This document shows positions 6,742-27,125 of a stretch of 64,000 nt of DNA, in pieces. Both the position numbers and the translations under genes were made by a program. The DNA lies in the NCBI GenBank assembly GCA_028287285.1, contig JAQBPY010000254.1, positions 1,507 to 65,506 on the forward strand, given 5' to 3'. The DNA comes from Gemmatimonadota bacterium (GTDB lineage: Bacteria; Gemmatimonadota; Gemmatimonadetes; Gemmatimonadales; Gemmatimonadaceae). The first letter of the stretch is position 1. Each line of letters starts with the position of its first letter. Below the pieces are notes generated by a model. It ran no database searches. It was not told where the DNA came from and saw only the letters and a program-made list of their open reading frames with translations.

Positions 6742-6742
6742 C

Positions 6743-7693
6743 ATGACGGACGGCGCGCCGGCTCAACCGCCACGGCAGCGCGCCGCGCCATTTCGCCTCG
6801 CCCGGCTGGCGGCCGTCATCGTGCTTGCGGCGGCGTCCATACTGTACATGGGAACCGCACTCGCTCGCGCGCGCGGCAGTCTGCACAGCATCGCATGGCT
6901 GGCGCACCCGGGCGAGCTTGCGGCAAGCATCGCCATTCAGGCTGTGTCGCTGACGCTGGGCTGCCGCATCTGGTTCGAGATCCTTCAGCGGATCGCGCCC
7001 TCGCCCGTGACGGCAGTGCAGCACTGGCGCATCTGGGCACTCACGAATCCAACACGCTACATCCCCGGCCGCATCTGGCACGTGGCGTCGCTCGCGGCGT
7101 TCATGCGGTCTGCCGGCGTGACACCCGTCGCGATGCTGACGTCGATCGTGGTGCACATGTGGCTCTACGTCCTTGCCGCGTGCGCCATGGGACTCGTGCT
7201 GCTTCCGGTCACGCCAGCATCCGTGGCGGGGGCGGTGGCAGTACTGTGTGGCGTGGCCGCTGGAACGCACCCGCGCCCCCTTCGGGCGATGCTCCACATT
7301 GCATCACGCCTGAGCGGGCAGCCCGCACTCGAGTGGCGCAGCGGCTGGCTCCCAACCCTTGCACTTGTTGCTGCCGACGTGGGCATCCATTCGCTGAATG
7401 GGCTGGGCGTTAGCACGCTGTTAGGGGCAACAATGGATCTTCCCGTGAGCAGCTGGCTGCACGTCGCGGGCGCAAACGCGATCGCCTTCCTCGCCGGATA
7501 CGCCAGCATGGTTCCCGCAGGGCTCGGCGTGCGTGAAGCGACGTTGACGGCTCTTCTGGAGGGAAATTCAATGGCCGGAGGAGCCGCCGCGGCCGCGCTG
7601 GTGGTGCGTGCGGCGGCAACCTTCGTCGAAGTGCTGCTGGCGCTCGTCGCCGGGGTGATGCCAAGAGCTCAGGGGCCTGTTACCGGCGCGTAA
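6743..7693 (+). CDS. UPF0104 / LPG-synthase-TM-like 'flippase-like' membrane protein
   Basis: ATG at 6743, 1 nt after the yfhO-like stop. Polytopic, with YIPGRIWHVASL and VPAGLGVREATL (P-x-G-x-G-x-x-E type motif). The ORF-track extension to 6581 overlaps the upstream gene. Confidence 0.6.
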   Translation: MTDGAPAQPPRQRAAPFRLARLAAVIVLAAASILYMGTALARARGSLHSIAWLAHPGELAASIAIQAVSLTLGCRIWFEILQRIAPSPVTAVQHWRIWALTNPTRYIPGRIWHVASLAAFMRSAGVTPVAMLTSIVVHMWLYVLAACAMGLVLLPVTPASVAGAVAVLCGVAAGTHPRPLRAMLHIASRLSGQPALEWRSGWLPTLALVAADVGIHSLNGLGVSTLLGATMDLPVSSWLHVAGANAIAFLAGYASMVPAGLGVREATLTALLEGNSMAGGAAAAALVVRAAATFVEVLLALVAGVMPRAQGPVTGA

Positions 7694-9963
7694 CCGAGAC
7701 CGGTGGGTGCCTCGAGCACGTTCTTCCGCTCCCGGACCACGGTGAGCAGATCGAGCGCCGCGCCGATGCGCTGTACCTGTGCGCGGACCACCTGCGCAGG
7801 CCTGGCGGAATCACCCTTTTGCGGCAGGACGAAGCCCATGCGTGGCGCCTGCAGGGCGTAGGTGGAGTCCAGTCCGTCCGAAACGCCGAGTCCCACGCGC
7901 ATGTACAGGTAAGGCGCGTTCACAGATGGTATGTCCACCCACCGGCCCTGCCGCTCGAGTCCGGCGGGCCCGCGGAACGACTGCCACAACGCCAGCGTGC
8001 GCGGCACGTCCACGTAGCCGATGCCGGTGTTCACGGCGCCCGGTTCAGCGGCAGGATCGGCGACGAGCTTGCGCGCGAGACCATGCGTGATGAGATGCCC
8101 GCCGAGATACTTGTCCATGGCCGGCGTGCCGGCACCGCTGCTGAAGTAGATGGGACGGTTCACCCCCGCGTCATGGATGATCCGCAGCATGACGACCACG
8201 TCACGCGTGAGCATCGTGGGCGGGATGTCCACCTGAAAGCCATTGAGCTGCGCTCGGCTCGCACCCGTCTGCATCTCCTGCGGAATGGCGTTGGCCTCGC
8301 TCCGCGTCAGCGCCAGCACAGGGGTGAGCGGCCGCGCGGGAAAATTCCTGTAGATCGCGGGCCCCCGCGCTGCGTCATAGGGCTCGGGGGTCTTCACGAT
8401 CAGCTCGCGCACGTACCAGTCCGTCGCGAGATAGGCGAGCAGCACGATGGTCACGTCGCGACGCACACCGAGCACCTGCTGTGCGTACCACAGGGGAAAG
8501 GAATCGTTGTCGCCGCCCGTGAACAGCACGCCGTTGGGCTCCACGCTATTGAGCGCGTCGACGGCAAAGTCCTCCGCAAAGGTCTCCTTGCGGCGAGATG
8601 CGGCGCTCCAGTTCACGATAAGTGGCACGAGTGCCACGCACATCACCGGGCCGGCGATGTGCCAGTGACGGGGGCGGGGCACAACGGCGGCGCGTCCATC
8701 GAGCCCTCCGCTACCCGCGACCAGCTCCGCGATGCGGCGCCACACGAACGCCAGTCCCAGGCCGATCCATACCGAGAGCGCGGAATAGCTCCACAGGTAG
8801 AAGTAGTCCCGGTCGCGCACCTCGTGCAGTCGCGGATCCTGCACGCCCATGGCCATGGCCTGCGAGTAGCCGAGCTTGAAGTTCAGGTAGTAGATGAGCC
8901 CCGCGGTGAGCGTGGCAATGAGGGTCGCAAACGGCACGAAGCTGCGCCGGTCTGCCTTCCAGTGCGTATACCCTCCGGCACCGGCAAGCAGGAGCACCGC
9001 CACAGCGATGGCGCTCTGCCAATCCGGAGACATGCCGGCGGGATCACGGAACCACTGCCACTTGAAGTACAACCACCACATCCGCACCTGGTTGGGCAGG
9101 CTCTGCTGGCGATCGAGCAGCGAAGGCTTTGCGTACTGGGTGCGGTTGTTCTCGTAGAGAAACCGGTCGAGCGTTTCCCTGCTCACCGTGCATCCCCAAT
9201 GCGGTGCGCCATCCTCGCATGCCGACGGATGCCCTTCGTTGATTTCCAGCCGGAATGCCGACCGAATGGGCAGCATCGCGTATGGCGTGAGGCCGAGCAC
9301 GAAGAGCGCCGCGCACAGGGCGAGCAACCGCGGCCGCCTGAGCGTGCGGGGCTTCGTGTAGAGCACGGCTGCAAGCAGCGCGGGGCCGGCAAGCAGGCCG
9401 GCAATGTGAATGGTATAGCCGATGCCCAAGCGATAACACAGGAGGCCGAGCCGCTTGTCTGCCGCAGGCCCGTCCGGATCGCTTTGCCAGAGCAGCGTGG
9501 TCCAGAGGTCCAGCGTGAGCAGAAAGAGCGAAACGGTATAGACCTTCTCGTTCACGACCGACTGGTTCCAGACGGTGAACGCACTGGCGCCCACGAGCGC
9601 CGTGGCCGCGCCGGCAACACGCGCGCGCGACGGTGAGAGCCAGTTGCGCGCGACATGTTCGGTAACGAGAAACCACAGGCCGGCCGACAGGGCGCTGGCA
9701 AGTGCCACCAGCACGTTCAGGCGTCCCGCGACAGTTCGGGCAATTGGCAGCAGGGCGACCACGCGCCCGAGCAGCACGAAACCGGGATTGCCGGGCGGAT
9801 GCGGAATTCCAAGACGTGCCGCAGCGGCCACGTATTCGCCCGCATCCCACAAGCCGATCGTCGGCGATAATGTGACCAGATACAGCAGCAACGCGGCGGC
9901 GGACACGGCGCCCGCGGTGCGATACGATGGCGCGGAGAGCGGGCTCGCCCTGGAGTCACTCAT
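7669..9963 (-). CDS. DUF2723 (TMEM260-like) GT-C family membrane protein, paralog 1
   Basis: 764 aa. N-terminal LSPTIGLWDAGEYVAAAARLGIPHPPGNPGF is typical of DUF2723. Multiple TMs and a large C-terminal soluble domain. ATGA overlap with the upstream GT4 at 9960-9963. Confidence 0.7.
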   Translation of the reverse strand: MSDSRASPLSAPSYRTAGAVSAAALLLYLVTLSPTIGLWDAGEYVAAAARLGIPHPPGNPGFVLLGRVVALLPIARTVAGRLNVLVALASALSAGLWFLVTEHVARNWLSPSRARVAGAATALVGASAFTVWNQSVVNEKVYTVSLFLLTLDLWTTLLWQSDPDGPAADKRLGLLCYRLGIGYTIHIAGLLAGPALLAAVLYTKPRTLRRPRLLALCAALFVLGLTPYAMLPIRSAFRLEINEGHPSACEDGAPHWGCTVSRETLDRFLYENNRTQYAKPSLLDRQQSLPNQVRMWWLYFKWQWFRDPAGMSPDWQSAIAVAVLLLAGAGGYTHWKADRRSFVPFATLIATLTAGLIYYLNFKLGYSQAMAMGVQDPRLHEVRDRDYFYLWSYSALSVWIGLGLAFVWRRIAELVAGSGGLDGRAAVVPRPRHWHIAGPVMCVALVPLIVNWSAASRRKETFAEDFAVDALNSVEPNGVLFTGGDNDSFPLWYAQQVLGVRRDVTIVLLAYLATDWYVRELIVKTPEPYDAARGPAIYRNFPARPLTPVLALTRSEANAIPQEMQTGASRAQLNGFQVDIPPTMLTRDVVVMLRIIHDAGVNRPIYFSSGAGTPAMDKYLGGHLITHGLARKLVADPAAEPGAVNTGIGYVDVPRTLALWQSFRGPAGLERQGRWVDIPSVNAPYLYMRVGLGVSDGLDSTYALQAPRMGFVLPQKGDSARPAQVVRAQVQRIGAALDLLTVVRERKNVLEAPTGLGYAPVTGP

Positions 9964-11078
9964 GGGCGCGCGGCCGTCAACAGCAACGCCTCGAACGCAT
10001 CGGCGGCGCGCGCCCAGGTAAAAGTCTGCGCGTACGCGCGCGCCCGCGCGCCTAGCACACGCGCCAGCTCCGCATCGAGCGCGATGCGCCGCATGGCCCC
10101 CGCGAGCTCGGTGACGTTTCCATGCGGCACCAGGATACCCGTCTGTCCATCACGAACAGCGTCGCGCAGGCCCGGCGAATCACTCGCAATGGACGGTGTG
10201 CCGTATGTTGCGGCATCGAGAATGCTCATGCCCCAACCCTCCTTGGCGGACGTGATGACGTTGGCCCATGCGCGCGACATGAGTGCGAATTTTTCCTCCT
10301 CCGGGACGAAGCCGCGAAACTCTACCCGGTGCGCGATACCGAGACGCTCTGCGTGCCGCCGCAGCGCGCGCTCCTCCGAGCCGCGCCCCGCGACGATCAA
10401 CCGCGCCTCGACGTGCTCCTGCGTCAGCCGCGCCATGGCCTGGAGGAGCAGGTCGACGCGCTTGTACGGCTGCAAGCGTCCAATATAGAGAAACTCCGGA
10501 GTGTCGGCGCGCGCCACGTCATCGTGCTGCGGCGGCGCTGACTCGGGAATGCCGTTGTGGATTACCCGCACGGCGTCGCGATGCCGCGTGCGGCGGCGGG
10601 CTTCGACGGCCGAGCTGTCCGAGACGGCGACGACCGGAACCGACGCATACAGCGGCAGCAGCGCGTGCTCCAGCAACACCGTCGCCGTCGCCACCAATGG
10701 ATTGGCGGCGGCGAACGCGGAGGCACCGAATAGATGGTGCACCATCAACACCACCGGCCCGCGCACCCACACCGGCGTCGCCATCGGAATCTTGTTGAGG
10801 TCCTCGACGACTACGTCGAAGTGCCGGTCATGCCGCTCCCGATACCATGCCCGTGCGGCGACCGGGTACGTCCACCGGTTCCCACGGCGATGGACGGCAA
10901 TGCCATCGAGCTCCTGGTCGGGCGCCGCGCCGGCCCACGAGGATGACACGAGCGTCACGCGGTGGCCCCGCCGCGCGAGACGGCCAAAGATCTCGTGGAG
11001 GTTCGTTTCCGCGCCTCCGGCCTCAGGATGCTCACGATCCAGCCAGTTGAAAACGAGCAGATCAAGACAGGGTGGCAC
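9960..11078 (-). CDS. Glycosyltransferase family 4
   Basis: LLVFNWLDREHPEAGGAE N-terminus and KEGWGMSILDAATYGTPSIASDSPGLRDAVRDGQTGILVP motif. Start placed at in-frame GTG 11078. The 590-aa track ORF (to 11732) would run antisense through the GT2 gene. Confidence 0.7.
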   Translation of the reverse strand: MPPCLDLLVFNWLDREHPEAGGAETNLHEIFGRLARRGHRVTLVSSSWAGAAPDQELDGIAVHRRGNRWTYPVAARAWYRERHDRHFDVVVEDLNKIPMATPVWVRGPVVLMVHHLFGASAFAAANPLVATATVLLEHALLPLYASVPVVAVSDSSAVEARRRTRHRDAVRVIHNGIPESAPPQHDDVARADTPEFLYIGRLQPYKRVDLLLQAMARLTQEHVEARLIVAGRGSEERALRRHAERLGIAHRVEFRGFVPEEEKFALMSRAWANVITSAKEGWGMSILDAATYGTPSIASDSPGLRDAVRDGQTGILVPHGNVTELAGAMRRIALDAELARVLGARARAYAQTFTWARAADAFEALLLTAARP

Positions 11079-11114
11079 TGGCGGGACTGTCGGACGCGAC
11101 GATACTGTGCGGGG

Positions 11115-12101
11115 GTGGCAGACTACGAAGGCGCGCCCGCGGAGGCAAGCGCACGACGAAATTTCGCCGTGATCATTCCGGCGTTCAATGAACGCGAGAA
11201 TGTCGCGCCGCTCTTCCGTGCGCTCGCGCTCGCTTTCGAGACTCACGACCTTGCTGGCGAGCTCGTGTTCGTGGACGATGGATCCACCGACGGTACGTTC
11301 GAGGCAGCGGAAGCCGAGGCGCGGCAATTTGCCGGGCCGGCCACCGTGGTTCGGCATGGGCGCAATCTTGGCAAGACCGAAGCGATCCTGCGTGGCGTGC
11401 AGGCCACCACGCGGCGCTTCGTGGTACTGCTCGACGCCGATCTGCAGTATGCACCGGATGACATTCCTCGATTCCTCGACCTGCTTGATCAGGGATGGGA
11501 TGTCGTGGCCGGCCGGAAGGTGGGCGCATATGCCAAGCAGGCGGTGAGCGGCATCTACAACTGGCTTGCGATTCGGTTGTTCGGCGTCACGGTGCGTGAT
11601 GGAAATTCCATGAAGGCGTGCCGGCGGGCGCTGCTCCTGGAAATTCCACTCCGGCACAACTGGCACCGGTTCTTCGTGGTGCTGGCGCACATGCGCGGGT
11701 ACCGTCTTGCGGAGATCGACGTCGCACTCCATCCGCGTGTGGCCGGCGTGGCCAAGTTCGATTCACGCGGCCGCATCCTGGGGGGAGTCGGCGACCTGAT
11801 CGTGGTGTGGCTGGCGCTACGAGTCAGTACGAAGCCGATGCACGTGTTCGGAGGCATCGGGCTGGTGACATTCGGCGTGGGGGCGGTGGTCGGGTTGATC
11901 ACGCTGGCGCTGCGCGCAGCCAACGTTTTGCCGCCGCCCATTGGCTACCGGCCCCTGGTAGGTCTCGCTGCGTTGCTGCTGCTGGTGGGAATCACGCTGT
12001 TCGCGATGGGGATCATCGCGGAACTGGTGGCCATTCTGCACGCGGAGATCGAGTCGCTGCGACGGGAGCTGCGGATACGGACCGGGGCGGGAGCCTCTTG
12101 A
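11115..12101 (+). CDS. GT2 polyprenyl-phosphate sugar synthase (GtrB/DPM1/ArnC-like) with C-terminal TM helices
   Basis: FAVIIPAFNERENV, VFVDDGSTDGT and LLDADLQYAPDD motifs. Two C-terminal hydrophobic helices (IGLVTFGVGAVVGLITL, AALLLLVGITLFAMGIIAELV). Start uncertain: GTG 11115 is preferred, ATG 11028 is possible. Confidence 0.7.
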   Translation: MADYEGAPAEASARRNFAVIIPAFNERENVAPLFRALALAFETHDLAGELVFVDDGSTDGTFEAAEAEARQFAGPATVVRHGRNLGKTEAILRGVQATTRRFVVLLDADLQYAPDDIPRFLDLLDQGWDVVAGRKVGAYAKQAVSGIYNWLAIRLFGVTVRDGNSMKACRRALLLEIPLRHNWHRFFVVLAHMRGYRLAEIDVALHPRVAGVAKFDSRGRILGGVGDLIVVWLALRVSTKPMHVFGGIGLVTFGVGAVVGLITLALRAANVLPPPIGYRPLVGLAALLLLVGITLFAMGIIAELVAILHAEIESLRRELRIRTGAGAS

Positions 12102-12356: not shown

Positions 12357-14960
12357 ATGCCACCAAGCAAGTTCGCGACCATTGCTGCCAGTGTTGTTCT
12401 TCTGTCCTGCGGAGATCGCCAGATTTCCGCTCCAGGAAGCAACGCCGCCGTACCGTCTGCGCCTGTGCCAGGTGCGTCCAATGCGGTCACGCTGCAGCGA
12501 CTTGCCTGTTCGGCACGCGTCGACACGAAGTCCGTGCGCTGTGCCCTTGCGCCCACCGGCGTGAGCCCTGACCTGATCGTTGGTGGCCAGGGTACGTATG
12601 TGACGCTCGCATCGTCGAACGTGACCTATGACGCCGGTACGCATGTCCTCAGCTCTGACGTGTCGGTTACGAACCTCATTCCGCAGGCCCTCGGCACCAA
12701 CGACGGCGTGACCGGCGATGGTACGGGCTTGCGGATCTTCTTTGATCAGGTGCCCACGACGACGAGCGGTACGGGTGTCGTCACGGTGTCGAACGCCACG
12801 GGAACAGGCACGTTCACCGCGTCGAACCAGCCGTATTTCCTGTATCCGGGCACGGCGCTTGGCGGCGACGACATTCTGTCCACGAATGAGACGTCCGCAA
12901 CGGTGCAGTGGCAGTTCACGCTGGACCCCACCGTCACCACATTCGAGTTCTACGTGTACGTGAGTGCGAACGTGCACTATCCCAACGGCTATGTGGACGC
13001 GGTGCAGGCGGACACGATGCTGAATCAGGCCGCGACGTCGTCCATCACGGCAACGTCGCGCACGGCCGTGGGCAATGCGGTGACGGGCTCCACGCTCTCG
13101 TACGCGAGCACGGCGCCGGCCGTCGCGACGGTCAATACCTCGGGTGTCATCACGGCCGTTGCGCCTGGTTTCGCCACGATCAACATCACGAGCACCGAAT
13201 CGACGACGGGCTCGGTGACCATCCAGGTGTGTCCGAATCTCGCCGTGGGCGAGGTGTACAACACCAGTGGCGCGAGCGGCGAGAACATCTGCGTGGGCGG
13301 CGGTGCATCTGCGATGGAATACACCGTGATGCCGGTCAACAGCGGCGGTACGTCGCAGTCGCTCACCGTAACCGGCACTGGGATCCAGGCTGTGACGGGC
13401 CCTCCAACGCCGGATCGCATTCCCGTGAGCCGGCTGCTTCTGACCGCGAGCGCCGCCCCCACAGGCGGCATCCAGAAAGGCGCATTCGGCGGTGAATACT
13501 CGATGAACGCCGCGGCGGTCGACGGCGCCAGCCTGGTGCACCAGGTTGCCATGGCCGAGTCGCGTCACGGTCCGTCCGTCGAGCAGACTCCGGATGCCGC
13601 GGATGGAGTGACGGCCGCAGATGGCGGAAGCCAGCGGCTGATGTGGTACCCGCCCCGGTCGGACGAGGGGAACGACGACTCAGCCCACTCCCCCGGGCTG
13701 GCGCTCATGAAGGCAGCGATGCCTGTCAGGGACGATTTGACGCCCACTGTTGGCGCGCTGCTGGAGTACAATACGACCAACGCCTGCTCAGGCTCCCCCT
13801 CCCTGCGAACCGGCATGGTGAGAACGGTGTCGGCCCATGCGGTCGTCGTCGGCGATACGGCGAACCCGGCAGGTGGATTCACGACGGCACAATACGACTC
13901 CATCGCACTCGAATTCGATACGATTGCGTATCCCACGATCACAGGCAGCTTCGGCACGCCAAGGGATATGGACAGCAACGGTGGCCGCATTGTCCTGTTC
14001 TTTACGCGGGCCGTCAACGAGCTGTCGCCTCCCGCGTCGTCATCGGTAAACCTTGGGTTCTTTGCACGGAAGGATGTCTCCACCACGACCGAGTGCACCA
14101 ATAGCAACGCGGCGGAGATTCTCTACATGCTGGTGCCCGATCCAACGGGGACGGTAAACTCCAACGTGCGTACTGTTTCGTTCGTGCGAGGCAATACCAC
14201 GGGCACGACCGGGCATGAGCTCGTCCATATCATCAACACGGACTACCGGTATTCTCACGGCGCGCCGTATGAGGCGGGCTGGCTGGACGAGGCACTGGCG
14301 CACATCGGCGAGGAGCTGATGTTCTATCGCGCGTCCGTGGGCCTGTCTCCGCGGCAGAACATCCAGCTTTCGACGTTGACGACGGGTCCCAATGCGTCGA
14401 GACGGGTTGCGGCGTTCAACGCGTATGCGAATCAGAATTTTGGCAGGTTTCGCGCTTGGCTCCAGCGGCCGGACACGGCCGGTCTCGTGAACACGCAGGG
14501 TGCTTCCCTGGCGCGGCGCGGGTTCGGGTGGGCGTTTCTCCGCTACGCGGCAGACCGGATCAACGGCACGGATGCGACGTTTTTCAGGGCGCTGGTGTCA
14601 CAGGACACGGGGGTCGTGAACCTGCAGGCGGCGATCGGCGTCGGAGCGAACGTCCATGACTGGATCCGCGATTGTATCACCGGAATCTACGCGGACGACA
14701 ACGCGTTCACGGTGTCGAGCGACTACCAGCATCCATCATGGAACTACCGGTCCGTGTACGGGGGGCTGGGTGGCTTTCCGTTGCTGGCACGGCCACTGAC
14801 AAACAATGCTGGGCTTCCACTCAGTTACGGGGCAGGTGGTACCACGGCCTATACCCGGTTCGGTGTGGCTGCGGCAACGTATGCGAACATCAAGATCCAG
14901 GCTCCCGGCGCGACAACGCCCGCTGCGACGGTGAGAATGGCGTTGGTACGGACGAAATAG
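12357..14960 (+). CDS. HExxH zinc metallopeptidase lipoprotein with Big_2 domain, paralog 2
   Basis: Lipoprotein signal MPPSKFATIAASVVLLSCGD (lipobox LLSC). Big_2-like segment ends in GFATINITSTESTTGSVTIQV. HExxH site is TGHELVHIIN, with DEALAHIGEE downstream. Ends in RTK. The track start GTG 12324 adds 11 aa. Confidence 0.75.
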   Translation: MPPSKFATIAASVVLLSCGDRQISAPGSNAAVPSAPVPGASNAVTLQRLACSARVDTKSVRCALAPTGVSPDLIVGGQGTYVTLASSNVTYDAGTHVLSSDVSVTNLIPQALGTNDGVTGDGTGLRIFFDQVPTTTSGTGVVTVSNATGTGTFTASNQPYFLYPGTALGGDDILSTNETSATVQWQFTLDPTVTTFEFYVYVSANVHYPNGYVDAVQADTMLNQAATSSITATSRTAVGNAVTGSTLSYASTAPAVATVNTSGVITAVAPGFATINITSTESTTGSVTIQVCPNLAVGEVYNTSGASGENICVGGGASAMEYTVMPVNSGGTSQSLTVTGTGIQAVTGPPTPDRIPVSRLLLTASAAPTGGIQKGAFGGEYSMNAAAVDGASLVHQVAMAESRHGPSVEQTPDAADGVTAADGGSQRLMWYPPRSDEGNDDSAHSPGLALMKAAMPVRDDLTPTVGALLEYNTTNACSGSPSLRTGMVRTVSAHAVVVGDTANPAGGFTTAQYDSIALEFDTIAYPTITGSFGTPRDMDSNGGRIVLFFTRAVNELSPPASSSVNLGFFARKDVSTTTECTNSNAAEILYMLVPDPTGTVNSNVRTVSFVRGNTTGTTGHELVHIINTDYRYSHGAPYEAGWLDEALAHIGEELMFYRASVGLSPRQNIQLSTLTTGPNASRRVAAFNAYANQNFGRFRAWLQRPDTAGLVNTQGASLARRGFGWAFLRYAADRINGTDATFFRALVSQDTGVVNLQAAIGVGANVHDWIRDCITGIYADDNAFTVSSDYQHPSWNYRSVYGGLGGFPLLARPLTNNAGLPLSYGAGGTTAYTRFGVAAATYANIKIQAPGATTPAATVRMALVRTK

Positions 14961-15034
14961 ACCGCACGGTTCCAGAAGCAAGGGGCAAAGCAGCCCCCAC
15001 CGCAGCATTCGCCCTTTTCACGCAGGATGAACAG

Positions 15035-15214
15035 ATGTCAAAAGCGATACCACGCACCAACGAATTCTCAGGTACGAACCATTCGGAGAACCTGACTCGC
15101 TCTCCGTGGGAGATGCCGACGCTCACCAAGCTTCCGCCGTTGACCGAGTTGACCCTGGTCACCGGTGCTGGCATTCATGGTGGCGGAGGAAGCAGCGGCG
15201 GAAGCGTTTTCTAG
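15035..15214 (+). CDS. Candidate RiPP precursor peptide (59 aa, Cys-free, Gly-rich C-terminus)
   Basis: ATG 15035 is preceded by AGGA 7 nt upstream. Peptide: MSKAIPRTNEFSGTNHSENLTRSPWEMPTLTKLPPLTELTLVTGAGIHGGGGSSGGSVF. It lies in the 315-nt gap between the peptidase and the PqqD-like gene. ELTLVTGA fits E(-8)L(-7)xxV(-4)xG(-2)A(-1) of double-glycine leaders. By hand count about two thirds of codons end in G/C; I judge this below neighbouring genes but did not count them, so coding status is uncertain. Confidence 0.45.
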   Translation: MSKAIPRTNEFSGTNHSENLTRSPWEMPTLTKLPPLTELTLVTGAGIHGGGGSSGGSVF

Positions 15215-15275
15215 TAGACTGTTGCTGAACCACGAATAACGCGCAGCACGCCGGATGGATCAGCGGCCTGGCAAG

Positions 15276-15551
15276 TCAGGTCGCCTGACGAATCAGGGTC
15301 TGTTCGCTGAGGTCGCGGAGCAGTGCATTCACGGCATCGGTTGCCACATTCGAGGAAACATCGAAGGTGGCGACCAGTTGCGCCGTGATGCTATCCGTAT
15401 CAAGGCCGCTCTCCAGCAACTTCCATACGTGCGCACCCACGCGATTGAGCCGGAAGTAGTGTTTGCTGCCCATGTGGAGCAGGATCGCCTCGCCGTCCAG
15501 GTGTGACACGAGGACATCGGGTGAGGGCACGTAGCGCAGCGCGGTGCTCAT
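15276..15551 (-). CDS. PqqD-family protein (stand-alone RiPP recognition element candidate)
   Basis: 91 aa. VLVSHLDGEAILLHMGSKHYFRLNRVGAHVWKLLESGLDTDSI matches the PqqD pattern (dge.vll...yy.LN..ga.iW.ll). Its start codon abuts the stop of the upstream propeller gene. Confidence 0.75.
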   Translation of the reverse strand: MSTALRYVPSPDVLVSHLDGEAILLHMGSKHYFRLNRVGAHVWKLLESGLDTDSITAQLVATFDVSSNVATDAVNALLRDLSEQTLIRQAT

Positions 15552-16709
15552 CTATCTGATTGCCGCCGAATGTTCGGTGGAGAGCGCGGCCACGGGAATG
15601 GCGTGGAGCTCAAATGGAATGGCAGGATCCACCCAGCGCAGCGACGACTCGTTCCCGCTGAAGGTGGTGAACACGATGCGTCCATCGGAAAGCCATGCAG
15701 GCTGGCCGCTCGACGCCGTGTTCCGCGTGATTTGAGCGGTCGCATTGGTCCGCAGATCGCGCACGAAGATTTCCGTCGCTCCGCCAATGACCGCGGCATA
15801 CGCGAGACGGAAGCCATCGGGACTCCATGCCGGCTCCACTTCCACGCCCTGCGTTCCCGAGCCCGTCACCAGCACCGGCGTGGCACCCGCTGTGGCCGCA
15901 CTCGTGAACAGGCCCGAGGACCCCGTATTCGTCGAGGCAGACACGAACGCGATCTTGTCCGAGGCAGGCGCCCATGTGGGAGAGGATTCAGGCGCCGACG
16001 GGCTGCCGAAGGTCGCAACGGCAAGACGCGCCGCGCCCGACACGGGAGTCGTGGCCGCCGCCAGGTTGAGCGACGCGATCCATATCTTGCTCACGCCGCT
16101 CGCGTTGGTGGTGTACAGGACGTGCTTCGCATCCGGAGCAATGGACGGCTGCGTCTCACTCTCGTCCGACGTGGTCAGGCGCCGCTCCACGCCCGTGGCC
16201 AGCGACAACGAATACAGCTCCGCATTCCCGTCGCGAAAGCTGGAGTAGAGCACGACGTCGCCCGCGACGGTGGGCCTGGCATCGTCGCCCGCGTTGGTGG
16301 TGAGGCGCGTGAGTGACGTGCCGTCGAGCGCAACGCGATAGATGTCGCGATTCCCGGCGGCGCGTCCGTCGAACACGATGAGCGGAGGGGTGGCTACGGT
16401 GACGGACAGCGAGAGGCTGGTACCGTCGGGGGCGGTGGCGGTGAACACCACCACGCCGGCCTTGGTGAACTGCACGTCGCCGCTGGCCGCGATGGTCACC
16501 GCATCGGCGGGGCTGGCGGCAAGCGCTGACACGGCGGCGACGGAAGAGCCGTCGCCCGTGCTGCTCCGCGCACCCACGTGTGCCGTGAGGCCGCGCTCGG
16601 TGCGGCCGGCGACGGCCAGCGAATACGGCGACGAAGGTGCCACGCCCTTGTCGCCGCCGCAGGCGACGGCGGCGAGGAGAATCACAACGGCTCCGCGGAC
16701 TATACGCAT
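15552..16709 (-). CDS. TolB-like (PD40) beta-propeller lipoprotein
   Basis: Signal MRIVRGAVVILLAAVACGGD (lipobox). Repeated PD40-like units (RLTTNAGDDARPTVAGDVVLYSS, RLTTSDESETQPSIAPDAKHVLYTT, EVEPAWSPDGFRLAY, SSGQPAWLSDGRIVF). Start chosen at ATG 16709, a 10-nt overlap with the rSAM stop. The track ORF to 17120 overlaps the rSAM gene. Confidence 0.7.
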   Translation of the reverse strand: MRIVRGAVVILLAAVACGGDKGVAPSSPYSLAVAGRTERGLTAHVGARSSTGDGSSVAAVSALAASPADAVTIAASGDVQFTKAGVVVFTATAPDGTSLSLSVTVATPPLIVFDGRAAGNRDIYRVALDGTSLTRLTTNAGDDARPTVAGDVVLYSSFRDGNAELYSLSLATGVERRLTTSDESETQPSIAPDAKHVLYTTNASGVSKIWIASLNLAAATTPVSGAARLAVATFGSPSAPESSPTWAPASDKIAFVSASTNTGSSGLFTSAATAGATPVLVTGSGTQGVEVEPAWSPDGFRLAYAAVIGGATEIFVRDLRTNATAQITRNTASSGQPAWLSDGRIVFTTFSGNESSLRWVDPAIPFELHAIPVAALSTEHSAAIR

Positions 16710-17692
16710 GCGGCGACTCCCTGCCATGCACTTGCCTCGCCCTCGGCGAGCCACTTGAGCTTTCCGAGCGCGTGCGCGCAACGGAGACACGGGAGCGTGG
16801 CGAGCGCGCCCGAAAAATTGGATGGTGCCGCCTTGGCGCGAAGGGACGCCATTGACTCGAGATAGATGTTCCATGCATCGCGGAACGACATGTCGTGCAG
16901 GTCTGCCACGACGTCGCTCTCGGTGAATCCATATTCGGACATCTGGCAGCAGAGGGACACGCGTCCGTTGGCGTCCACGTACACGCGATTGAGCGCCATC
17001 GTATCGCAGACAGTCTCCGTCTTTCCGTCGAGCGGCGGCGCGCCGTAGTCGAGCTGAATGACGGTGCGCCGGTGCGGCTCGGCGGCGATGGCGTCGATCT
17101 CCCTCTGAACGGCGGGCCATTCATGCGGTGCGAGATCGCTGTCGCGTACAACGCTGCCGGGCACCGGCTGCGGCAGGATATAGTGCAGGCGGAGGCAGCC
17201 GAGGCTCTCGGCGAGATCCGCGACCGTGCGCACTTCGTGCCGGTCCCTCCGATCGATGACGATGGAGAGCGCGTTGGGAATCTGACGGCTGGTGAGCAGC
17301 GCAATGGCCATGAGCACGCGGCGAAAGCTGTCACGCCCGCGATCTGCATCGTGTGTCTCTTCCGAGCCGCCGGACAGGCTCACCCGCACGTATGACGGTG
17401 GCCAGCGGTCGAACGAGGGCATCATGCGGCGCATGTGCCACCCATTGGTGACCAGGCGGTATGCGATGCCTCGTGCCGCCAGCGCGGAGACGATCTCGTC
17501 CCAGCCCTTGTGCAGCGTGGGCTCTCCGCCGGTAAAGCTGGCCGTGACGCTTCCGAAGAGCTCCAGGGCCTCGTCGCACGTGCGTATGACGAGCTCGGGC
17601 TCCAGCGAGCGTACCTTCAGCACGTCATCGCGAATGCAGTGCGGACAGCGAAGGTTGCAATGTGTCGTAAGCGCAAAACCCAGCAGCATCAA
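16700..17692 (-). CDS. Radical SAM enzyme with partial SPASM/twitch-like C-terminal domain
   Basis: N-terminal LTTHCNLRCPHCIRDD is CxxxCxxC. C-terminal C-x13-G-x4-CC (CDTMALNRVYVDANGRVSLCC) matches the first half of the SPASM motif. A later CLRC is present, but the full CX2CX5CX3C is absent. Confidence 0.8.
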   Translation of the reverse strand: MMLLGFALTTHCNLRCPHCIRDDVLKVRSLEPELVIRTCDEALELFGSVTASFTGGEPTLHKGWDEIVSALAARGIAYRLVTNGWHMRRMMPSFDRWPPSYVRVSLSGGSEETHDADRGRDSFRRVLMAIALLTSRQIPNALSIVIDRRDRHEVRTVADLAESLGCLRLHYILPQPVPGSVVRDSDLAPHEWPAVQREIDAIAAEPHRRTVIQLDYGAPPLDGKTETVCDTMALNRVYVDANGRVSLCCQMSEYGFTESDVVADLHDMSFRDAWNIYLESMASLRAKAAPSNFSGALATLPCLRCAHALGKLKWLAEGEASAWQGVAACV

Positions 17693-17863: not shown

Positions 17864-20248
17864 ATGATGTCACGGATGCAGTCTGGACCGCCGCTTCAGC
17901 CAGCCGAATGGCCTGTGATCACGCTTCGGGCGATCGCCGTATACCTGCTGTTGGCGTTCATGGCCTTCGCCCCTGCGTTCTTTCCATGGCAGCAGATCGC
18001 CGGCACGGACTACGTCACCGGCGGCTTCTACTTCCTGGAGTATGCCGCGCGCGCGCGGCAGGGGGGCCACTTCCCCACGTGGGTTCCCTACATCTTTGGC
18101 GGGGTTCCCATGTATGCGAACCCGGGCAGTCTGTTCTACCCCGCGCGGATGCTGTTCATCGAGATCCTGCCCCTCGAGCGTGTGATGCCGGCGCTGTACG
18201 TCGTGCAATTCGCGCTCGCCGGCATCGGCATGCATCTCTTTGCGCGGACCCTGGGTGTGCGTCCGTGGGTCGCGTTCCTTGGCGGCCTGCTCTATGAGTT
18301 CACCGGGGTCACGTTCTCGTACGTGTATGCCGGTCATGATGGCCGCATCATAGGCGCGACGCTCGCGCCGTTCCTGTTCTACTTCGTGACGGTGGCCGTG
18401 CGCACCGGCCGCGCATCCTGGTTCGCCGGCATTGCCGCGAGCGTCGGACTGATGCTGCTTTCCTTCCAGCTCCAGAGCACCTATTACGTGCTGCTCGGTG
18501 CCGGGGCATGGGCCGTGTTTCTCCTGGCGCGCGCGCGCGCCGGCATGCCCACGCCGGTGCTCGTGCGCCGTGCCGTGCTGGGTGGCGCGGCGGTGGCGTT
18601 CGGCTTCATGCTCGCTGCCGTGAATCTGCTTCCGTTCTCCGGCTATGTGGAGGATTCCCCGCGCAGCAGCGTGGCCAAGCGGGACTACGCGTTTTCCACG
18701 CAGTTCTCCATGCCGGTGGTGGAGACCGTGGGCCTGGCGGTGCCGGAGCAGGCGGGCCTGCTCGAGGAGTACAAGGGCGACAACCCCTTCAAGCTACATA
18801 CCGAGTACGTGGGCGCGATCGTCCTGCTGCTGCTCGTGGTGGGAGCGATGAGCTTTCAGCGGGATGCCGTCTGGCAGTTCATGGCCGGCCTCGCGCTGTT
18901 CATGCTGACCGTCTGTTACGGCTCGTATACGCCGCTCTACTCCCTCTATTACCGCGTTCTCCCCGGTACGACGAAGTTCCGCTCGCCCTCCATTGCGCTT
19001 TTCATGGTGTCCTTTGCGCTGGTCGTCATGGCCGTGCTCACACTGGAGAGCATGGCCGATGCGCTCGACGAACGACCAGCGTCGCGCGGCTTCGTCCTTC
19101 CGCGGCGCCTGCTGACGGCGCTCATCGGCGCGTCGGTGCTCATCGTCACCGTCGCACTCGGCACCGCGCTCGATGGCGGACACCGGGCGCTGGGGTGGGC
19201 GCGCTTTGGCGTGTGCCTGCTGCTCGCCTCGCTCATCGTCCGCACCTGGATCTTCGGGCGCATCAGGGTGCGCACGGCCTCCATACTGCTCAGCGTCCTG
19301 GCGGTGGCGGATCTCTGGGTCGTGGATCGCAACTTCCTGTGGACGCAGCCTGTCTCCGACATCGTCTACGCGGCGGATGACGTGGTTCACTTTCTCAAGT
19401 CCATGCCCGATGCGCGCGTGTGGGTATTTCCATTTCCCAATGCCGCGGGCGCGGAGCACTACATGGGCAACAAACGCTTCCCGCCCAATAGCGACTACCT
19501 AATGCACTTCGGCATCAGGCAGGCGGGAGGCGAGCATGGCAACCAGCCTTTCCGCTGGAATCGCCTCGCTGGAATCGGGACCACCGGTAATGTGGACTGG
19601 CACAACTTCGTGGAGTATCCCGCCATTCTTGGGGCGGCGGGAGTGAAGTACATCGTGAGCGCGGTGTCGCTGAGCATGGTGAAGGGCAAATCCCGCATGG
19701 GAATGAAAGGGCTGCGCGAGCTGTACCATGGAAGCGCGTACGTATACGAGAACGAGAGCGCCGTTCCGCGCGCCACGCTCGTGCCCTCCGCCGTGTCGGT
19801 GTCGTCGCCACAGGTCGCGGTCATCGCCATGCGGAACGCCGATTGGGACGCACGCAGGGTAGCGGTGGTGGAAGGTGCGTTGCCGGAGCTCGCGGATACG
19901 TCAGCGGCCGGCATGTCGGCGGCCAGCACGGTACGCATGGTCGTGGATGAACCCGAGCACGTTGCCATTCACGTGGATGCCGAACGCCCGGCGCTCCTCG
20001 TGCTCAGCGACAATTATGTCGAAGGATGGACGGCGCGCGTGGATGGAAGCACGGTCCCCATCCTGCGCACCAACCTCGCTTTTCGCGGCGTGCCCGTATC
20101 GAAGGGATCGCATGACGTGGTCTTCGAGTTCGCCCCACGCCGACTTTACGCGGGCATGTGGATGTCGTCGGTTGGCTGGACGGTGCTCCTGATCTCCGTC
20201 GCAGGGCTCGTGTTTACAGGACGGCGGCGCGAGCCGGCCATCGGCTAA
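17864..20248 (+). CDS. YfhO-like polytopic membrane protein (GT-C candidate), paralog 2
   Basis: 794 aa, co-linear by eye with 4291..6741 (GTDYVTGGFYFLEY, WVPYIFGGVPMYANPG, FSTQFSMP, HFGIRQAGGEHGNQ). C-terminal TM present. Confidence 0.6.
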   Translation: MMSRMQSGPPLQPAEWPVITLRAIAVYLLLAFMAFAPAFFPWQQIAGTDYVTGGFYFLEYAARARQGGHFPTWVPYIFGGVPMYANPGSLFYPARMLFIEILPLERVMPALYVVQFALAGIGMHLFARTLGVRPWVAFLGGLLYEFTGVTFSYVYAGHDGRIIGATLAPFLFYFVTVAVRTGRASWFAGIAASVGLMLLSFQLQSTYYVLLGAGAWAVFLLARARAGMPTPVLVRRAVLGGAAVAFGFMLAAVNLLPFSGYVEDSPRSSVAKRDYAFSTQFSMPVVETVGLAVPEQAGLLEEYKGDNPFKLHTEYVGAIVLLLLVVGAMSFQRDAVWQFMAGLALFMLTVCYGSYTPLYSLYYRVLPGTTKFRSPSIALFMVSFALVVMAVLTLESMADALDERPASRGFVLPRRLLTALIGASVLIVTVALGTALDGGHRALGWARFGVCLLLASLIVRTWIFGRIRVRTASILLSVLAVADLWVVDRNFLWTQPVSDIVYAADDVVHFLKSMPDARVWVFPFPNAAGAEHYMGNKRFPPNSDYLMHFGIRQAGGEHGNQPFRWNRLAGIGTTGNVDWHNFVEYPAILGAAGVKYIVSAVSLSMVKGKSRMGMKGLRELYHGSAYVYENESAVPRATLVPSAVSVSSPQVAVIAMRNADWDARRVAVVEGALPELADTSAAGMSAASTVRMVVDEPEHVAIHVDAERPALLVLSDNYVEGWTARVDGSTVPILRTNLAFRGVPVSKGSHDVVFEFAPRRLYAGMWMSSVGWTVLLISVAGLVFTGRRREPAIG

Positions 20249-22500
20249 CGGCCGATGACGGGGGCGTAGCCCAGCCCGGTGGGCGCCTCGAGCACGGGGC
20301 CGCGGCGGAGATAGCGCACAAAATCCACCGCACGCCCCATCCGCAGCACATCGTCGCGCAGGCGTTTCGCGCCCGCGTGATTGCCCGTTGAATCCTGTGC
20401 ATCGGCAAGGGCAACGCCGATGCGCAGGTACAGGTAGGGCATGTTCGCCGAGGCTTCGTCCGTCCATACGCCGCGCGCACCCATGGATTCGCGTGCGTGG
20501 AGATGATCCCAGAGCGATTGCGTCCGGGCCACGTCGAGCAGGCCCACATGCTTCGTCATGATGGCGCCGGGTATCGCGGCGGCGTTCGGCACGACCTTGC
20601 GCGCGAGACCCTGGGTGAGCAGGTGGGGCTTGAGGAAATTGTCGATGACTTCAGACCCTGCGGCCCCGCTGAAGTACACAGGCCGCGCCCGTCCCGCGGT
20701 CTGGATGATGCGCATCATGACCAGCACGTCGCGGTCGATGGTCATTGCCGGAATGGTGAGGTCGAAACCCGGCATTCGAACGCTCTGTGCCCGGAGTGTG
20801 CGTGTATGTGCGGGAATCGAGTCAGCCTGCGCGAGCGTGAAATCGAGCACGGGCTGGCGAAGCGGCGTCACCGGCACGGTGCGGTAGATGGCCGGCCCCG
20901 TGGCGGCATCGTACGGCTCGGGCACGCGTGCGATCAGCTCCCGCGCGTACCAGTCGGTGGACAGGTATGGCGTGAGCACGACGGATACATCGCGGCGCAC
21001 GCCAAGCACCTGCTGTGCGAACCAGAGAGGAAACGAATCGTTGTCGCCGCCGGTAAAGAGAATGGCATTGGGCTCGACGCTGTTGAGCATGTCGACGGCG
21101 AAGTCCTGGGCGAAGCGATCCGCTCGGCGCGATGCCGAGCTCCAATTGGCGAAGAACGGAATGAGCGCGACGGCAAGGACGACCGACGTGAGGGGCCAGC
21201 GCCGCTCGAGCAGCTCCGCCCATGGATCATCCTGGGATGGGGTATTGGTGGTGGAGAACTCCGACAGGGCCTTCCAGACAAAGGCGAGACCCAGGCCGAT
21301 CCAGATGGCGAGCGCGGAGAAGCTCCAGAGGTAGAAGTAATCCCTGTCGCGTGTTTCGCGCGCGTTGGGATCGGCAATCATCATGGTGATGGCCTGGGTG
21401 TAGCCGAGCTTGAAGTTCAGGTAGACGATGAGGCCGGCTGTGAGCGTGGCGACCAGCGTGGCGAAGGGGACGAATGTCTGCCGGTCGTAGCGCCAGTGCG
21501 CGTAGGCTCCCGCACCGGCGAGGAGCAGCATGAGGATGGCGAGGGCACTCTGGGCCTCGGGAGCGGTCCACCGCACGTCTCGCAGCCACTGCCACTTGAA
21601 GTACATCCACCACATGGCGACCTGGTTGGGCAGTGTCTGCTGCCGGTCCAGGATGGAGGGCTTGGCGTACTGTGTTCGATTGTGCGCGTAGAGAAATCGG
21701 TTGACGGTCTCGCGGCTGACGGTGCAGCCCCAGTGTGGACGTCCATCTTCGCACGCCGTTGGATGCCCCTCATTGATGTCGAGGCGAAATGCGGCGCGAA
21801 TGGGCAGTGCGGCGAAGGGTGTGAACCCCAACAGGAACAATGCACCGCATGCCATGAGGAATCGGGTGCGGCGCAGCGTGCTCGGCCGAGTGTACAGCAC
21901 TGCGGCGAGCACTGCGGGGCCGGCAAGCAGGCCGGCGATGTGCACGGTATATCCGAGGCCCAGCCGGTAGCAGATGAGCATGAGCCGACGGTCCGCGGCG
22001 GGGCCATCGGGGTTGGACTGCCATCGGATCGCGGTCCAGACGTCGAGCACGAGGAGGAAGAGCGAGATGGTGTAGACCTTCTCGTTCACGACGGACTGGT
22101 TCCAGACGGTAAACGCGGTGGCGCCGAGGATCGCGCAGGCGGCGGCAGCGTATCGTGCCCGTGGCACGGTGAGCCAGTGTCGCACGACGTGCTCGGCGAC
22201 CAGGAACCAGAGACCGGAGGACAGTGCACTCGCGAGCGCGACCAGGACGTTGAGGCGCATCGCCGCGGTGCGGGCGAGGGGCAGCATCGTCGCTAGGCGG
22301 CCGAGCAGCAGGAATCCGGGATTTCCGGGCGGATGCGGAATGCCCATGCCCACGGCGGCGGCAACGTATTCGCCGGAGTCCCAGAGCCCGATGGTTGGTG
22401 CGAGCGTGAGCAGGTAGAGCGCAAAAACGCCGAGTGCTACGCCCGCTGCCGTTCGGTAGGAGGGCGTGGCGATCACATGGTCATTCTGCGCGATCGTCAA
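20245..22500 (-). CDS. DUF2723 (TMEM260-like) GT-C family membrane protein, paralog 2
   Basis: LAPTIGLWDSGEYVAAAVGMGIPHPPGNPGF. Co-linear with 7669..9963 down to the C-terminus (LEAPTGLGYAPVIGR vs LEAPTGLGYAPVTGP). Track start 22500 is TTG; GTG 22476 is an alternative. Confidence 0.7.
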   Translation of the reverse strand: MTIAQNDHVIATPSYRTAAGVALGVFALYLLTLAPTIGLWDSGEYVAAAVGMGIPHPPGNPGFLLLGRLATMLPLARTAAMRLNVLVALASALSSGLWFLVAEHVVRHWLTVPRARYAAAACAILGATAFTVWNQSVVNEKVYTISLFLLVLDVWTAIRWQSNPDGPAADRRLMLICYRLGLGYTVHIAGLLAGPAVLAAVLYTRPSTLRRTRFLMACGALFLLGFTPFAALPIRAAFRLDINEGHPTACEDGRPHWGCTVSRETVNRFLYAHNRTQYAKPSILDRQQTLPNQVAMWWMYFKWQWLRDVRWTAPEAQSALAILMLLLAGAGAYAHWRYDRQTFVPFATLVATLTAGLIVYLNFKLGYTQAITMMIADPNARETRDRDYFYLWSFSALAIWIGLGLAFVWKALSEFSTTNTPSQDDPWAELLERRWPLTSVVLAVALIPFFANWSSASRRADRFAQDFAVDMLNSVEPNAILFTGGDNDSFPLWFAQQVLGVRRDVSVVLTPYLSTDWYARELIARVPEPYDAATGPAIYRTVPVTPLRQPVLDFTLAQADSIPAHTRTLRAQSVRMPGFDLTIPAMTIDRDVLVMMRIIQTAGRARPVYFSGAAGSEVIDNFLKPHLLTQGLARKVVPNAAAIPGAIMTKHVGLLDVARTQSLWDHLHARESMGARGVWTDEASANMPYLYLRIGVALADAQDSTGNHAGAKRLRDDVLRMGRAVDFVRYLRRGPVLEAPTGLGYAPVIGR

Positions 22501-26789: not shown

Positions 26790-27125
26790 ATGCCGTTCAC
26801 CTGGCAGATCAGCATCAACAGGAGCAGGAATGCCGCTGGCTACGTGTACGCACCTGCCGTCCTCGACCCCGTTGCGATTGGCGACGAGATCATCTTCATC
26901 AACAACGACAGCACGCCGCACTGGCCTGGACTTGTCGATGCCACCGGAATGGCGCCCAGCTCGGCGACTTACTTCATGCGGTATCAGATCCCACCGCACA
27001 CGTCGTCCACGCCGTGGGTGCCTGGCGTAAACGGCACGGTGAGCTTTGCCGACTCGCTCGACACGAAGCCCTCGCCGCCCGCAGGCACCATTGTCGTGGC
27101 GGGCATCACGACGGTGCCTGAATGA
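26790..27125 (+). CDS. Small cupredoxin-like protein lacking Cys (hypothetical)
   Basis: 111 aa. Codons are predominantly G/C-ending on inspection (not counted). VAIGDEIIFINNDSTPHWP resembles the cupredoxin GD-x-v-x-f-x-N-x-D-x-x-x-H strand, but the protein has no Cys. ATGA overlap with the multicopper oxidase gene. Confidence 0.45.
   Translation: MPFTWQISINRSRNAAGYVYAPAVLDPVAIGDEIIFINNDSTPHWPGLVDATGMAPSSATYFMRYQIPPHTSSTPWVPGVNGTVSFADSLDTKPSPPAGTIVVAGITTVPE

Follow-up and report, generated by a model that had tools for sequence, protein, structure and literature searches.

This study concerns a 64-kb stretch of DNA (64,000 nucleotides, positions 1,507 to 65,506 of contig JAQBPY010000254.1, assembly GCA_028287285.1; hereafter the window) from a bacterium of the Gemmatimonadota, a phylum abundant in soil, of which few members have been cultured and hardly any natural products characterised. 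Between positions 12,357 and 17,692 the window carries a cassette of five genes, encoding a HExxH lipoprotein, a 59-residue peptide, a stand-alone PqqD-family protein, a lipoprotein with PD40 beta-propeller repeats and a radical S-adenosylmethionine (rSAM) enzyme. We conclude that this cassette is quite probably a reduced copy of a conserved and unnamed peptide-maturation system of the Gemmatimonadota, of the kind that makes ribosomally synthesised peptides with post-translational modifications (RiPPs), and that the small open reading frame (ORF) of 59 residues probably encodes its substrate. The first-pass annotation of the window had taken the pairing of an rSAM enzyme with a stand-alone PqqD as a sign of RiPP maturation and had recognised no described class; a conserved precursor and the lack of any curated family for the system support both points. 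Because the leader of the peptide is specifically of the lasso type and the RiPP recognition element (RRE) is closest to lasso B1 proteins, the unknown RiPP can be narrowed to a hybrid of lasso leader and rSAM enzyme. The system is widespread in the phylum, with more than 1,000 rSAM homologues and about 600 precursor clusters; it is unannotated, and its precursors are all called 'hypothetical'.

The window precursor has no match in NCBIfam or Pfam. Its N-terminal part contains W25 x x P28 x L30 ... T40 L41, which matches the spacing described for lasso leaders (YxxPxL from -17 to -12, and Thr-2; PMC10368454), with Trp replacing Tyr. Judged by this spacing, the leader is of lasso type. Leader statistics were taken over 182 non-redundant precursors, aligned on an anchor that requires P-14, L/M-9 and P/G-8 and allows W/F/Y-17. 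Position -17 is always Trp and position -8 always Pro, as is position -14, where Pro is imposed by the anchor. Conservation extends to four positions that the anchor does not impose: V/L/I-12 (98%), L-3 (100%), T-2 (99.5%) and L-1 (99%). If the lasso rule holds, cleavage of the window precursor would occur between L41 and V42.

The predicted cores of the family are rich in glycine (38% of residues), have a modal length of 20 and begin with Q at +1 (74%), T or S at +2 (98%) and G at +3 (83%). An I-x-G motif is nearly invariant, and the commonest C-termini are STVF (46%), STCF (19%) and TVIP (8%). The first core residue is variable (Q, A, V, D, L or I; Val in the window), no Tyr or Trp is conserved, and the C-terminus is not always a free aromatic residue, since TVIP, TVTP, SIFP and TVFPF also occur. 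The window peptide ends in SVF, contains no Tyr and has a core with neither Asp, Glu nor Cys; the translation of the whole peptide is free of Cys, as first annotated. Across the family, 44 of 182 cores contain exactly two Cys and the others none; a core with a single Cys was never seen. We read this strict pairing as a disulfide, because a single Cys would suffice for a thioether; it suggests an oxidising, extracytoplasmic destination of the peptide, which fits its lipoprotein partners. A second kind of small ORF was noticed downstream of the rSAM gene in some loci of Longimicrobium (L009:11549-11698, L010:12447-12707 and L012:2711-2992). It has the canonical lasso-like residues F-17, P-14, V-12, G-8 and T-2, scores weakly with the precursor profile (E values of 0.4 to 1.6) and ends in RRPFVAPAVEHLGRLETTTL followed by LTVVIP, a six-residue tail that looks like the two termini of the main core, with no Gly-rich middle between them.

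The PqqD protein of the window matches PF05402 (E=1.5e-15). Its best NCBIfam matches are both to lasso models and both below cutoff, with 55 bits for lasso_PqqD_Bac (NF033536, cutoff 80) and 49.5 bits for lasso_PqqD_Strm (NF033530, cutoff 70), and among solved structures it is nearest to TbiB1, a lasso B1 protein (5v1u, E=4.2e-9). Related loci carry further genes of lasso character. Their Transglut_core3 protein passes the cutoff of the lasso B2 model (NF033537, 60.4 bits against 33), and HprK-like and NTP_transf_5 (PF14907) proteins are conserved in related clusters; according to the published lasso literature, these two are typical neighbours of phosphorylated lasso peptides. In three close relatives of the window locus (L001, L004 and L087) the NTP_transf_5 gene adjoins the precursor. 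Reduced forms were also found: L004, L006 and L007 have no B2 gene, and L006 and L007 have no HprK-like gene either. Among the 28 related loci with at least 5 kb of sequence on both sides of the rSAM gene (the well-flanked loci, which include the window), three have a set reduced to the precursor, PqqD, PD40 and a lipoprotein that shares the N-terminal domain of the HExxH protein (the N-domain), and the window is one of them. The window cassette is a reduced form of a larger conserved cluster.

The rSAM enzyme matches PF04055 (E=5.5e-21) and has the motif CNLRCPHC, with C12, C16 and C19 forming CxxxCxxC. Its match to SPASM is partial, at 20.7 bits against a cutoff of 21.5 and over profile positions 1-44 of 67. 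Five auxiliary Cys, arranged as C229-x13-G-x4-C248-C249 ... C302-x2-C305, are conserved in at least 80 of 83 homologues; by their number they should be enough for one auxiliary cluster, a full SPASM domain having seven. These features fit the half-SPASM domain proposed on first reading. An AlphaFold2 model (predicted local distance difference test, pLDDT, of 90) has BlsE, SkfB, SuiB, PqqE, anSME and CteB as its nearest folds in the PDB, with template-modelling (TM) scores of about 0.6, and in sequence it is most similar, among solved proteins, to PqqE (E=3.6e-10). The radical-SAM core stands at the very start of the protein, with no RRE fused to it, which fits a dependence on the separate PqqD protein. 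Against NCBIfam the best scores were 50-65 bits, where the cutoffs are 265-625, and a PADLOC scan returned only a generic partial similarity of the rSAM core to viperin (pVip). Two rSAM paralogues of the family were seen within one locus in L025 (7032-8001 and 10004-10979) and in L066 (5597-6145 and 10001-10976).

A scan for the rSAM enzyme over one genome per GTDB species identified 80 related loci, all from Gemmatimonadota (Gemmatimonadales, Longimicrobiales and HR33). At E<=1e-10 and 90% clustering there are more than 1,000 rSAM homologues, of which the best 120 are 58-93% identical. A hidden Markov model of the precursor was built from the window peptide and the first homologue found (L001:10517-10693). 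With this model a homologue of the small ORF was identified in 72 non-redundant loci, the window included, and in 51 of 71 loci the precursor gene lies less than 300 nt upstream of the rSAM gene on the same strand. A search with the window precursor as a single sequence retrieved two proteins only; the profile search of 5.8 billion proteins retrieved 598 precursor clusters. Among the 120 matches listed, nearly all are 50-97 aa long, the named entries are all 'hypothetical' and no Pfam domain was found. The precursor gene is therefore predicted by independent gene callers, yet it has no name. Most loci have a single precursor gene. In the 28 well-flanked loci, the precursor is present in 25, the PD40 lipoprotein in 24, PqqD in 20, a lipoprotein with the N-domain in 20, a ScmC/HprK-like protein in 17, the Transglut_core3 protein in 13 and the NTP_transf_5 protein in 10. 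The commonest order is precursor, rSAM, (N-domain lipoprotein), PD40, PqqD, Transglut_core3 and HprK-like, followed by NTP_transf_5 on the opposite strand. The first-pass reading had turned on whether homologous operons keep a conserved small ORF nearby and on whether the enzymes belong to a family already defined. The small ORF is there in all but three of the well-flanked loci, and no curated family claims the rSAM, the PqqD or the precursor; the profile searches proposed at that time (PF04055, PF05402 and PF07676) matched the rSAM, PqqD and PD40 domains, and SPASM in part.

The lipoproteins are a conserved part of the system. The PD40 protein matches PF07676 (E=3.6e-19) and begins with a signal peptide and lipobox, MRIVRGAVVILLAAVAC. 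Its identification as TolB was rejected, because the score of 113.7 bits with TIGR02800 (cutoff 343) comes from the propeller blades only; the N-terminal part has no Pfam match and no TolB N-terminal domain. A propeller lipoprotein inside such an operon had been called unusual in the first-pass annotation. The comparison shows otherwise: besides its presence in 24 of the 28 well-flanked loci, in the commonest arrangement, seen in 21 of 44 loci, a PD40 homologue separates the rSAM gene from PqqD, all three on one strand. The HExxH protein consists of an N-terminal beta-sandwich, a Big_2-like domain and an M30-like HExxH domain. Its C-terminal part has no Pfam match at E<=1 and can be aligned with lugdulysin, an M30 metalloprotease (7bb8, E=2.2e-5), over HELVH and WLDEAL. 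Only the N-terminal 200-300 residues are widely common to the rSAM neighbours. This domain forms 1,147 clusters at 50% identity, always at the N-terminus, in proteins of 187-1836 aa, where it is fused to PD40 propellers, M30-like domains or other C-termini (as also in L003:9148-10548 and L067:19-9959), so that the C-terminal domains of the lipoproteins vary widely. Of 65 copies, 45 lie within 2 kb of the rSAM gene; L067 has four tandem paralogues just upstream of it. A Foldseek search of the PDB with an AlphaFold2 model of the domain (pLDDT 87) gave no significant match, with nothing better than E=1.8e-3 at a TM score of about 0.3. Full-length M30-like orthologues stand beside the precursor-rSAM pair in L054, L062, L064 and L070. 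The HExxH motif is intact in both window paralogues (12357-14960 and 21-1874) and in L070, and degenerate in L062:7005-9722 (HQLQH) and L064:7014-9659 (HTLQH), which both have B2, and in L054:11054-13510 (RELLA).

The layout of the cassette was established from the ORF listing and by direct reading of the gene junctions (Table 1). All five ORFs are present as first annotated. The rSAM, PD40 and PqqD genes are packed on the minus strand, where the end of the rSAM gene and the beginning of the PD40 gene share 10 nt and the PqqD ATG follows the PD40 stop directly (0-nt gap), and they converge on the plus-strand small ORF, which is separated by 74 nt from the stop of the preceding HExxH lipoprotein gene. 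The most likely start of the rSAM gene is the ATG at 17689 (MLLGFALTTHC), one codon inside the listed TTG at 17692. Our gene models are identical to the NCBI proteins MDB4915544/46/47/48 and JWM95_3189 of a Gemmatimonadetes metagenome-assembled genome. There the rSAM enzyme is MDB4915548.1, the HExxH protein is named 'Endoglucanase-like protein', and PD40, PqqD and the small ORF are 'hypothetical protein JWM95_3191', '_3190' and '_3189', respectively. In the convergent intergenic region (15205-15300) a promoter and terminator scan and RNA folding gave nothing above shuffled sequences (z=-0.09).

Table 1. Genes and predicted parts of the maturation cassette, in window coordinates.
Feature	Position	Strand	Description
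HExxH (M30-like) lipoprotein gene	12357..14960	+	867 aa; lipobox LLSC ends signal peptide; HELVH...WLDEAL
N-terminal domain of M30-like lipoprotein	12441..13028	+	about 190 aa, all-beta, two conserved Cys
Precursor peptide gene	15035..15214	+	59 aa, MSKAIPRTNEFSGTNHSENLTRSPWEMPTLTKLPPLTELTL followed by VTGAGIHGGGGSSGGSVF; NCBI 'hypothetical protein JWM95_3189'
Predicted leader	15035..15157	+	residues 1-41; W25(-17), P28(-14), L30(-12), P34(-8), T40(-2), L41(-1)
Predicted core	15158..15211	+	18 aa, VTGAGIHGGGGSSGGSVF
Stand-alone PqqD-family RRE, putative lasso B1 type	15276..15551	-	91 aa; PF05402
PD40 (TolB-like) beta-propeller lipoprotein, Ig-like region N-terminal to propeller	15552..16709	-	385 aa; PF07676
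Radical SAM enzyme, partial SPASM (twitch-like) C-terminus, no fused RRE	16700..17689	-	329 aa; PF04055

No published description of this system was found in the literature, and none of the five window proteins scores above the cutoff of any NCBIfam model. As in RRE-dependent rSAM RiPP systems in general, a short precursor is co-conserved with an rSAM enzyme and an RRE protein. Nevertheless, the system is set apart from lasso, pyrroloquinoline quinone (PQQ), mycofactocin, SynChlorMet and sacti/ranthipeptide pathways; for each of these, at least one defining feature was looked for here and not found. For genes not seen, the comparison covers five Pfam-annotated related loci (L001, L003, L084, L085 and L086) and the window ORFs scanned. 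Lasso systems with split B1 and B2 proteins (paeninodin, pseudomycoidin and BsfA type) share with this one the aromatic residue at -17, Pro-14, the aliphatic residue at -12 and Thr-2 of the leader; they too have a stand-alone PqqD-family RRE, the one here being closest to TbiB1, and related loci add the B2-type Transglut_core3 protein and the HprK-like and PF14907 neighbours. However, no lasso cyclase (Asn-synthetase-like, PF00733) was seen in these five loci or the window ORFs scanned, and an rSAM enzyme sits where the cyclase would be. The first core residue is mostly Gln (Val in the window) rather than Gly, Ala, Ser or Cys, and an acidic residue at core positions 7-9 occurs in only 60 of 182 precursors, scattered, and not in the window core. 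Position -8 is Pro and not Gly, and the window itself is without B2, kinase-like and nucleotidyltransferase-family genes.

The rSAM pathways resemble the system in other respects. PQQ biosynthesis (PqqA/PqqD/PqqE) also combines a small peptide, a PqqD-family RRE and an rSAM enzyme with an auxiliary-cluster domain, and no exporter is seen in the annotated clusters. It was rejected, as PqqE (TIGR02109) scores 50.3 bits against 381 and PqqD (TIGR03859) 20.9 against 46, the Glu-x3-Tyr pair is missing, and PqqB and PqqC were not seen in the annotated loci or the window ORFs scanned. Mycofactocin (MftA/MftB/MftC) likewise has a discrete PqqD-like RRE, an rSAM enzyme and a peptide ending in Val-aromatic (GVY in MftA, SVF or TVF here). 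It was rejected on the MftC score (TIGR03962, 55.4 bits against a cutoff of 265) and the variable C-terminus (TVIP, TVTP, STCF), and MftD, MftE and MftF were not seen in the same loci and ORFs; the first-pass annotation had likewise listed neither MftD/E/F nor PqqB/C. MftC-like C-terminal decarboxylation is disfavoured because the last residue is not always a free aromatic. SynChlorMet (ScmC, ScmD, ScmE and ScmF) has a PqqD homologue, rSAM/SPASM enzymes and, in ScmC, an HprK-like protein; the best matches of the rSAM include ScmF, and related loci show weak ScmC (PF27840) matches. The scores are far too low for membership (ScmF 58.9 against 400, ScmE 51.7 against 400, ScmD 31.1 against 100, and the ScmC-like protein of L001 17.9 against 125), there is one rSAM here and not two, and the window has no ScmC-like gene. 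We know of no precursor for SynChlorMet itself. The twitch/SPASM maturases SkfB, SuiB and CteB have the same fold and, by analogy, the system would share their dependence on an RRE and a leader peptide. Unlike the peptides of sacti-, ranthi- or streptide-type systems, the window core has neither Cys (hence no thioether) nor a Lys/Trp pair, and the RRE is separate and closest to the lasso type. With a Cys-free window peptide, a partial SPASM match, five instead of seven auxiliary Cys and an StsB score of 64.9 bits against a cutoff of 625, the sactipeptide and ranthipeptide assignment was rejected; the first-pass annotation had argued in the same direction from the lack of Cys.

We propose the following route for the system. 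The 59-aa peptide would be the substrate, and W-17 x x P-14 x L-12 ... T-2 L-1 in its leader would serve as a recognition sequence of lasso type. The stand-alone PqqD, a probable lasso-B1-type RRE, would bind this sequence and present the Gly-rich C-terminal core, VTGAGIHGGGGSSGGSVF in the window, to the twitch-type rSAM enzyme, which has no RRE of its own. The rSAM enzyme would then install a radical-mediated modification. The kind of modification is a guess: our favoured candidate is an intramolecular cross-link anchored on the C-terminal [S/T]-V-[F/I], with Ile/Val epimerisation as the main alternative. In most genomes the lasso-B2-type cysteine peptidase would cut after T-2 L-1, freeing a core that starts with Q-T-G, and the HprK-like and NTP_transf_5 proteins probably tailor this core further. 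In the window, removal of the leader may fall to a protease from another part of the genome, or else to the neighbouring M30-like HExxH lipoprotein, whose motif is intact. The PD40 and N-domain lipoproteins would be periplasmic partners of the exported peptide, either in binding or in processing it.

Several observations weigh against this interpretation. No Transglut_core3 (B2), HprK-like or NTP_transf_5 gene was found in the 64-kb window even at E<=10 (best E=0.5), and therefore leader removal in the window is unaccounted for. An active M30-like enzyme might stand in for B2, as is suggested by the very few cases available, the correlation between HExxH and B2 being drawn from four to five loci. 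Eleven loci have no precursor in the sequence available, by a relaxed motif and by inspection of the ORFs upstream of rSAM. From -9 to +3 (LPRLT[D/E]LTLQTG) the conservation far exceeds that of lasso leaders, and this stretch could be a modification or recognition site, not only a cleavage site. The proposed radical chemistry is, as said, guesswork, and since no exporter was seen in or beside the cluster in the five Pfam-annotated loci, export is only inferred.

The peptide might instead be the precursor of a cofactor or small subunit, on the model of PQQ, mycofactocin or the gamma subunit of quinohemoprotein amine dehydrogenase; the modified peptide, whole or in part, would then be bound to the propeller and N-domain lipoproteins and needed for their function. 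Such a role would agree with the phylum-wide distribution and the single precursor gene of most loci, with the conserved length and ends of the core (QTG...STVF), unlike the hypervariable cores of antibiotic RiPPs, and with the tight co-encoding of lipoproteins, a beta-propeller among them. Neither a transporter, an immunity gene nor a C39 peptidase was found in the five Pfam-annotated loci, and among solved rSAM enzymes PqqE is nearest in sequence. In the leader, the spacing W...13...[E/D]...4...residue +1 would also mirror the W...E15...Y19 of PqqA, whose sequence we take to be WKKPAFIDLRLGLEVTLY. However, residue +1 is variable and no Tyr or Trp is conserved, so that PQQ-like chemistry is excluded, and C-termini such as TVIP, TVTP, SIFP and TVFPF speak against an MftC-like decarboxylation. 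PD40 propellers are not known as cofactor-dependent enzymes, and the scores of the PqqE and MftC equivalogs are far below their cutoffs. We consider a cofactor or subunit role unlikely, at roughly one chance in a handful. Another view takes the rSAM enzyme as the maturase of a co-encoded secreted lipoprotein, as the anaerobic sulfatase-maturating enzyme (anSME) is for sulfatases, with the small ORF as a regulator or chaperone-like peptide. Indeed anSME is among the structural neighbours of the rSAM, and the lipoproteins are its most constant neighbours after the precursor. The pairing of a stand-alone RRE with a peptide whose RRE-binding motif is perfect speaks for the peptide as the substrate, though, and the adjacency of precursor and rSAM (51 of 71 loci) is tighter than that of lipoprotein and rSAM; given also the widely varying C-terminal domains of the lipoproteins, we regard this view as very improbable.

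Two further alternatives concern the lasso features and the state of the window copy. If the system were a lasso cluster with its cyclase encoded elsewhere, the rSAM would be a tailoring enzyme only. The lasso-type leader, the B1-like RRE, the B2 of related loci and the kinase-like and nucleotidyltransferase accessory genes, typical of phosphorylated lasso clusters, would all be explained, but not the lack of a PF00733 cyclase in the loci and ORFs scanned, nor cores with mostly Gln at +1 and no conserved acidic residue at 7-9 (60 of 182). The window core has no Asp or Glu and can form no macrolactam, which refutes this explanation for the window peptide; for the system it is scarcely credible. 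The window copy might, on the other hand, be a decaying remnant that lost B2, HprK-like and NTP_transf_5 and makes no finished product. The failure to find these three genes in 64 kb even at E<=10 speaks for decay, as does the presence of NTP_transf_5 beside the precursor in the closest relatives (L001, L004 and L087). Against it, none of the five ORFs is broken, the start and stop codons of the three minus-strand genes still overlap or abut, and the window precursor keeps every invariant leader residue. The same reduced set occurs in 3 of the 28 well-flanked loci, L006 and L007 are also without B2 and HprK-like genes, and another part of the genome could hold the missing genes, the window covering 64 kb of a 78,195-bp contig. 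We think the cassette no remnant because all its genes are intact and tightly coupled; decay is quite improbable, if less far-fetched than a lipoprotein substrate or a hidden cyclase.

Taking the peptide-maturation system as the preferred reading, a more specific proposal can be made tentatively, at somewhat worse than even chances: that it is the first example of a new RiPP class restricted to Gemmatimonadota, in which lasso leader machinery (a B1 RRE, with or without B2 and the kinase-like and nucleotidyltransferase-family genes) was recombined with a twitch rSAM in place of the cyclase, and whose Gly-rich, radical-modified product of about 20 residues would be a dedicated ligand or prosthetic partner of the periplasmic lipoproteins that share the N-domain (PD40 and M30-like), and not a free antibiotic. 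That modules for recognising and cleaving lasso-type leaders are reused here beside another class-defining enzyme bears on the evolution of RiPPs by module exchange. In the RRE-Finder study some 300 discrete RREs of lasso type were reported to co-occur with rSAM enzymes; they were regarded there as false positives and not characterised (PMC7470986). The PqqD family described here is probably among them, and the system helps to explain part of these 'false-positive' RREs. With the precursor, the predicted cleavage site and the minimal enzyme set (precursor, PqqD and rSAM) defined, radical chemistry on a Cys-free, Gly-rich core becomes directly testable, and the conserved lipoprotein partners offer a handle on the biological role.

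Regarding the surroundings of the cassette, two paralogous glycosylation modules flank it (1953-12101 and 17864-22500). They comprise two GT4 glycosyltransferases, YfhO, a TMEM260-like/DUF2723 GT-C protein, another GT4 and a GtrB-like GT2, and then a second pair of YfhO and TMEM260-like proteins. The arrangement first annotated, in which the peptidase is followed by either two GT4 genes or the cassette and then by YfhO and DUF2723, is found in the window as described. Among more than 80 related loci no YfhO or DUF2723 gene was found near the rSAM; the association is therefore local to this genome, and the ancestral link is that of the M30-like/N-domain lipoprotein with the rSAM system. Eukaryotic TMEM260 O-mannosylates Ig-like (IPT) domains, and the lipoproteins that neighbour the TMEM260-like genes carry Ig-like domains. 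Elsewhere in the window there are a multicopper-oxidase-like protein and an MFS_3 'transmembrane secretion effector' transporter (27122-29341 and 33386-34981), and nothing ties either to the cassette. Related loci have neighbours of their own: three tandem YadA_head and Peptidase_S74 proteins stand between rSAM and PD40 in L009 (13742-17449), three phage-tail Collar proteins and a 1627-aa Big_2/invasin protein lie beside the cluster in L001 (3946-5516), and baseplate genes of a contractile injection system lie beside it in L084 (367-4006).

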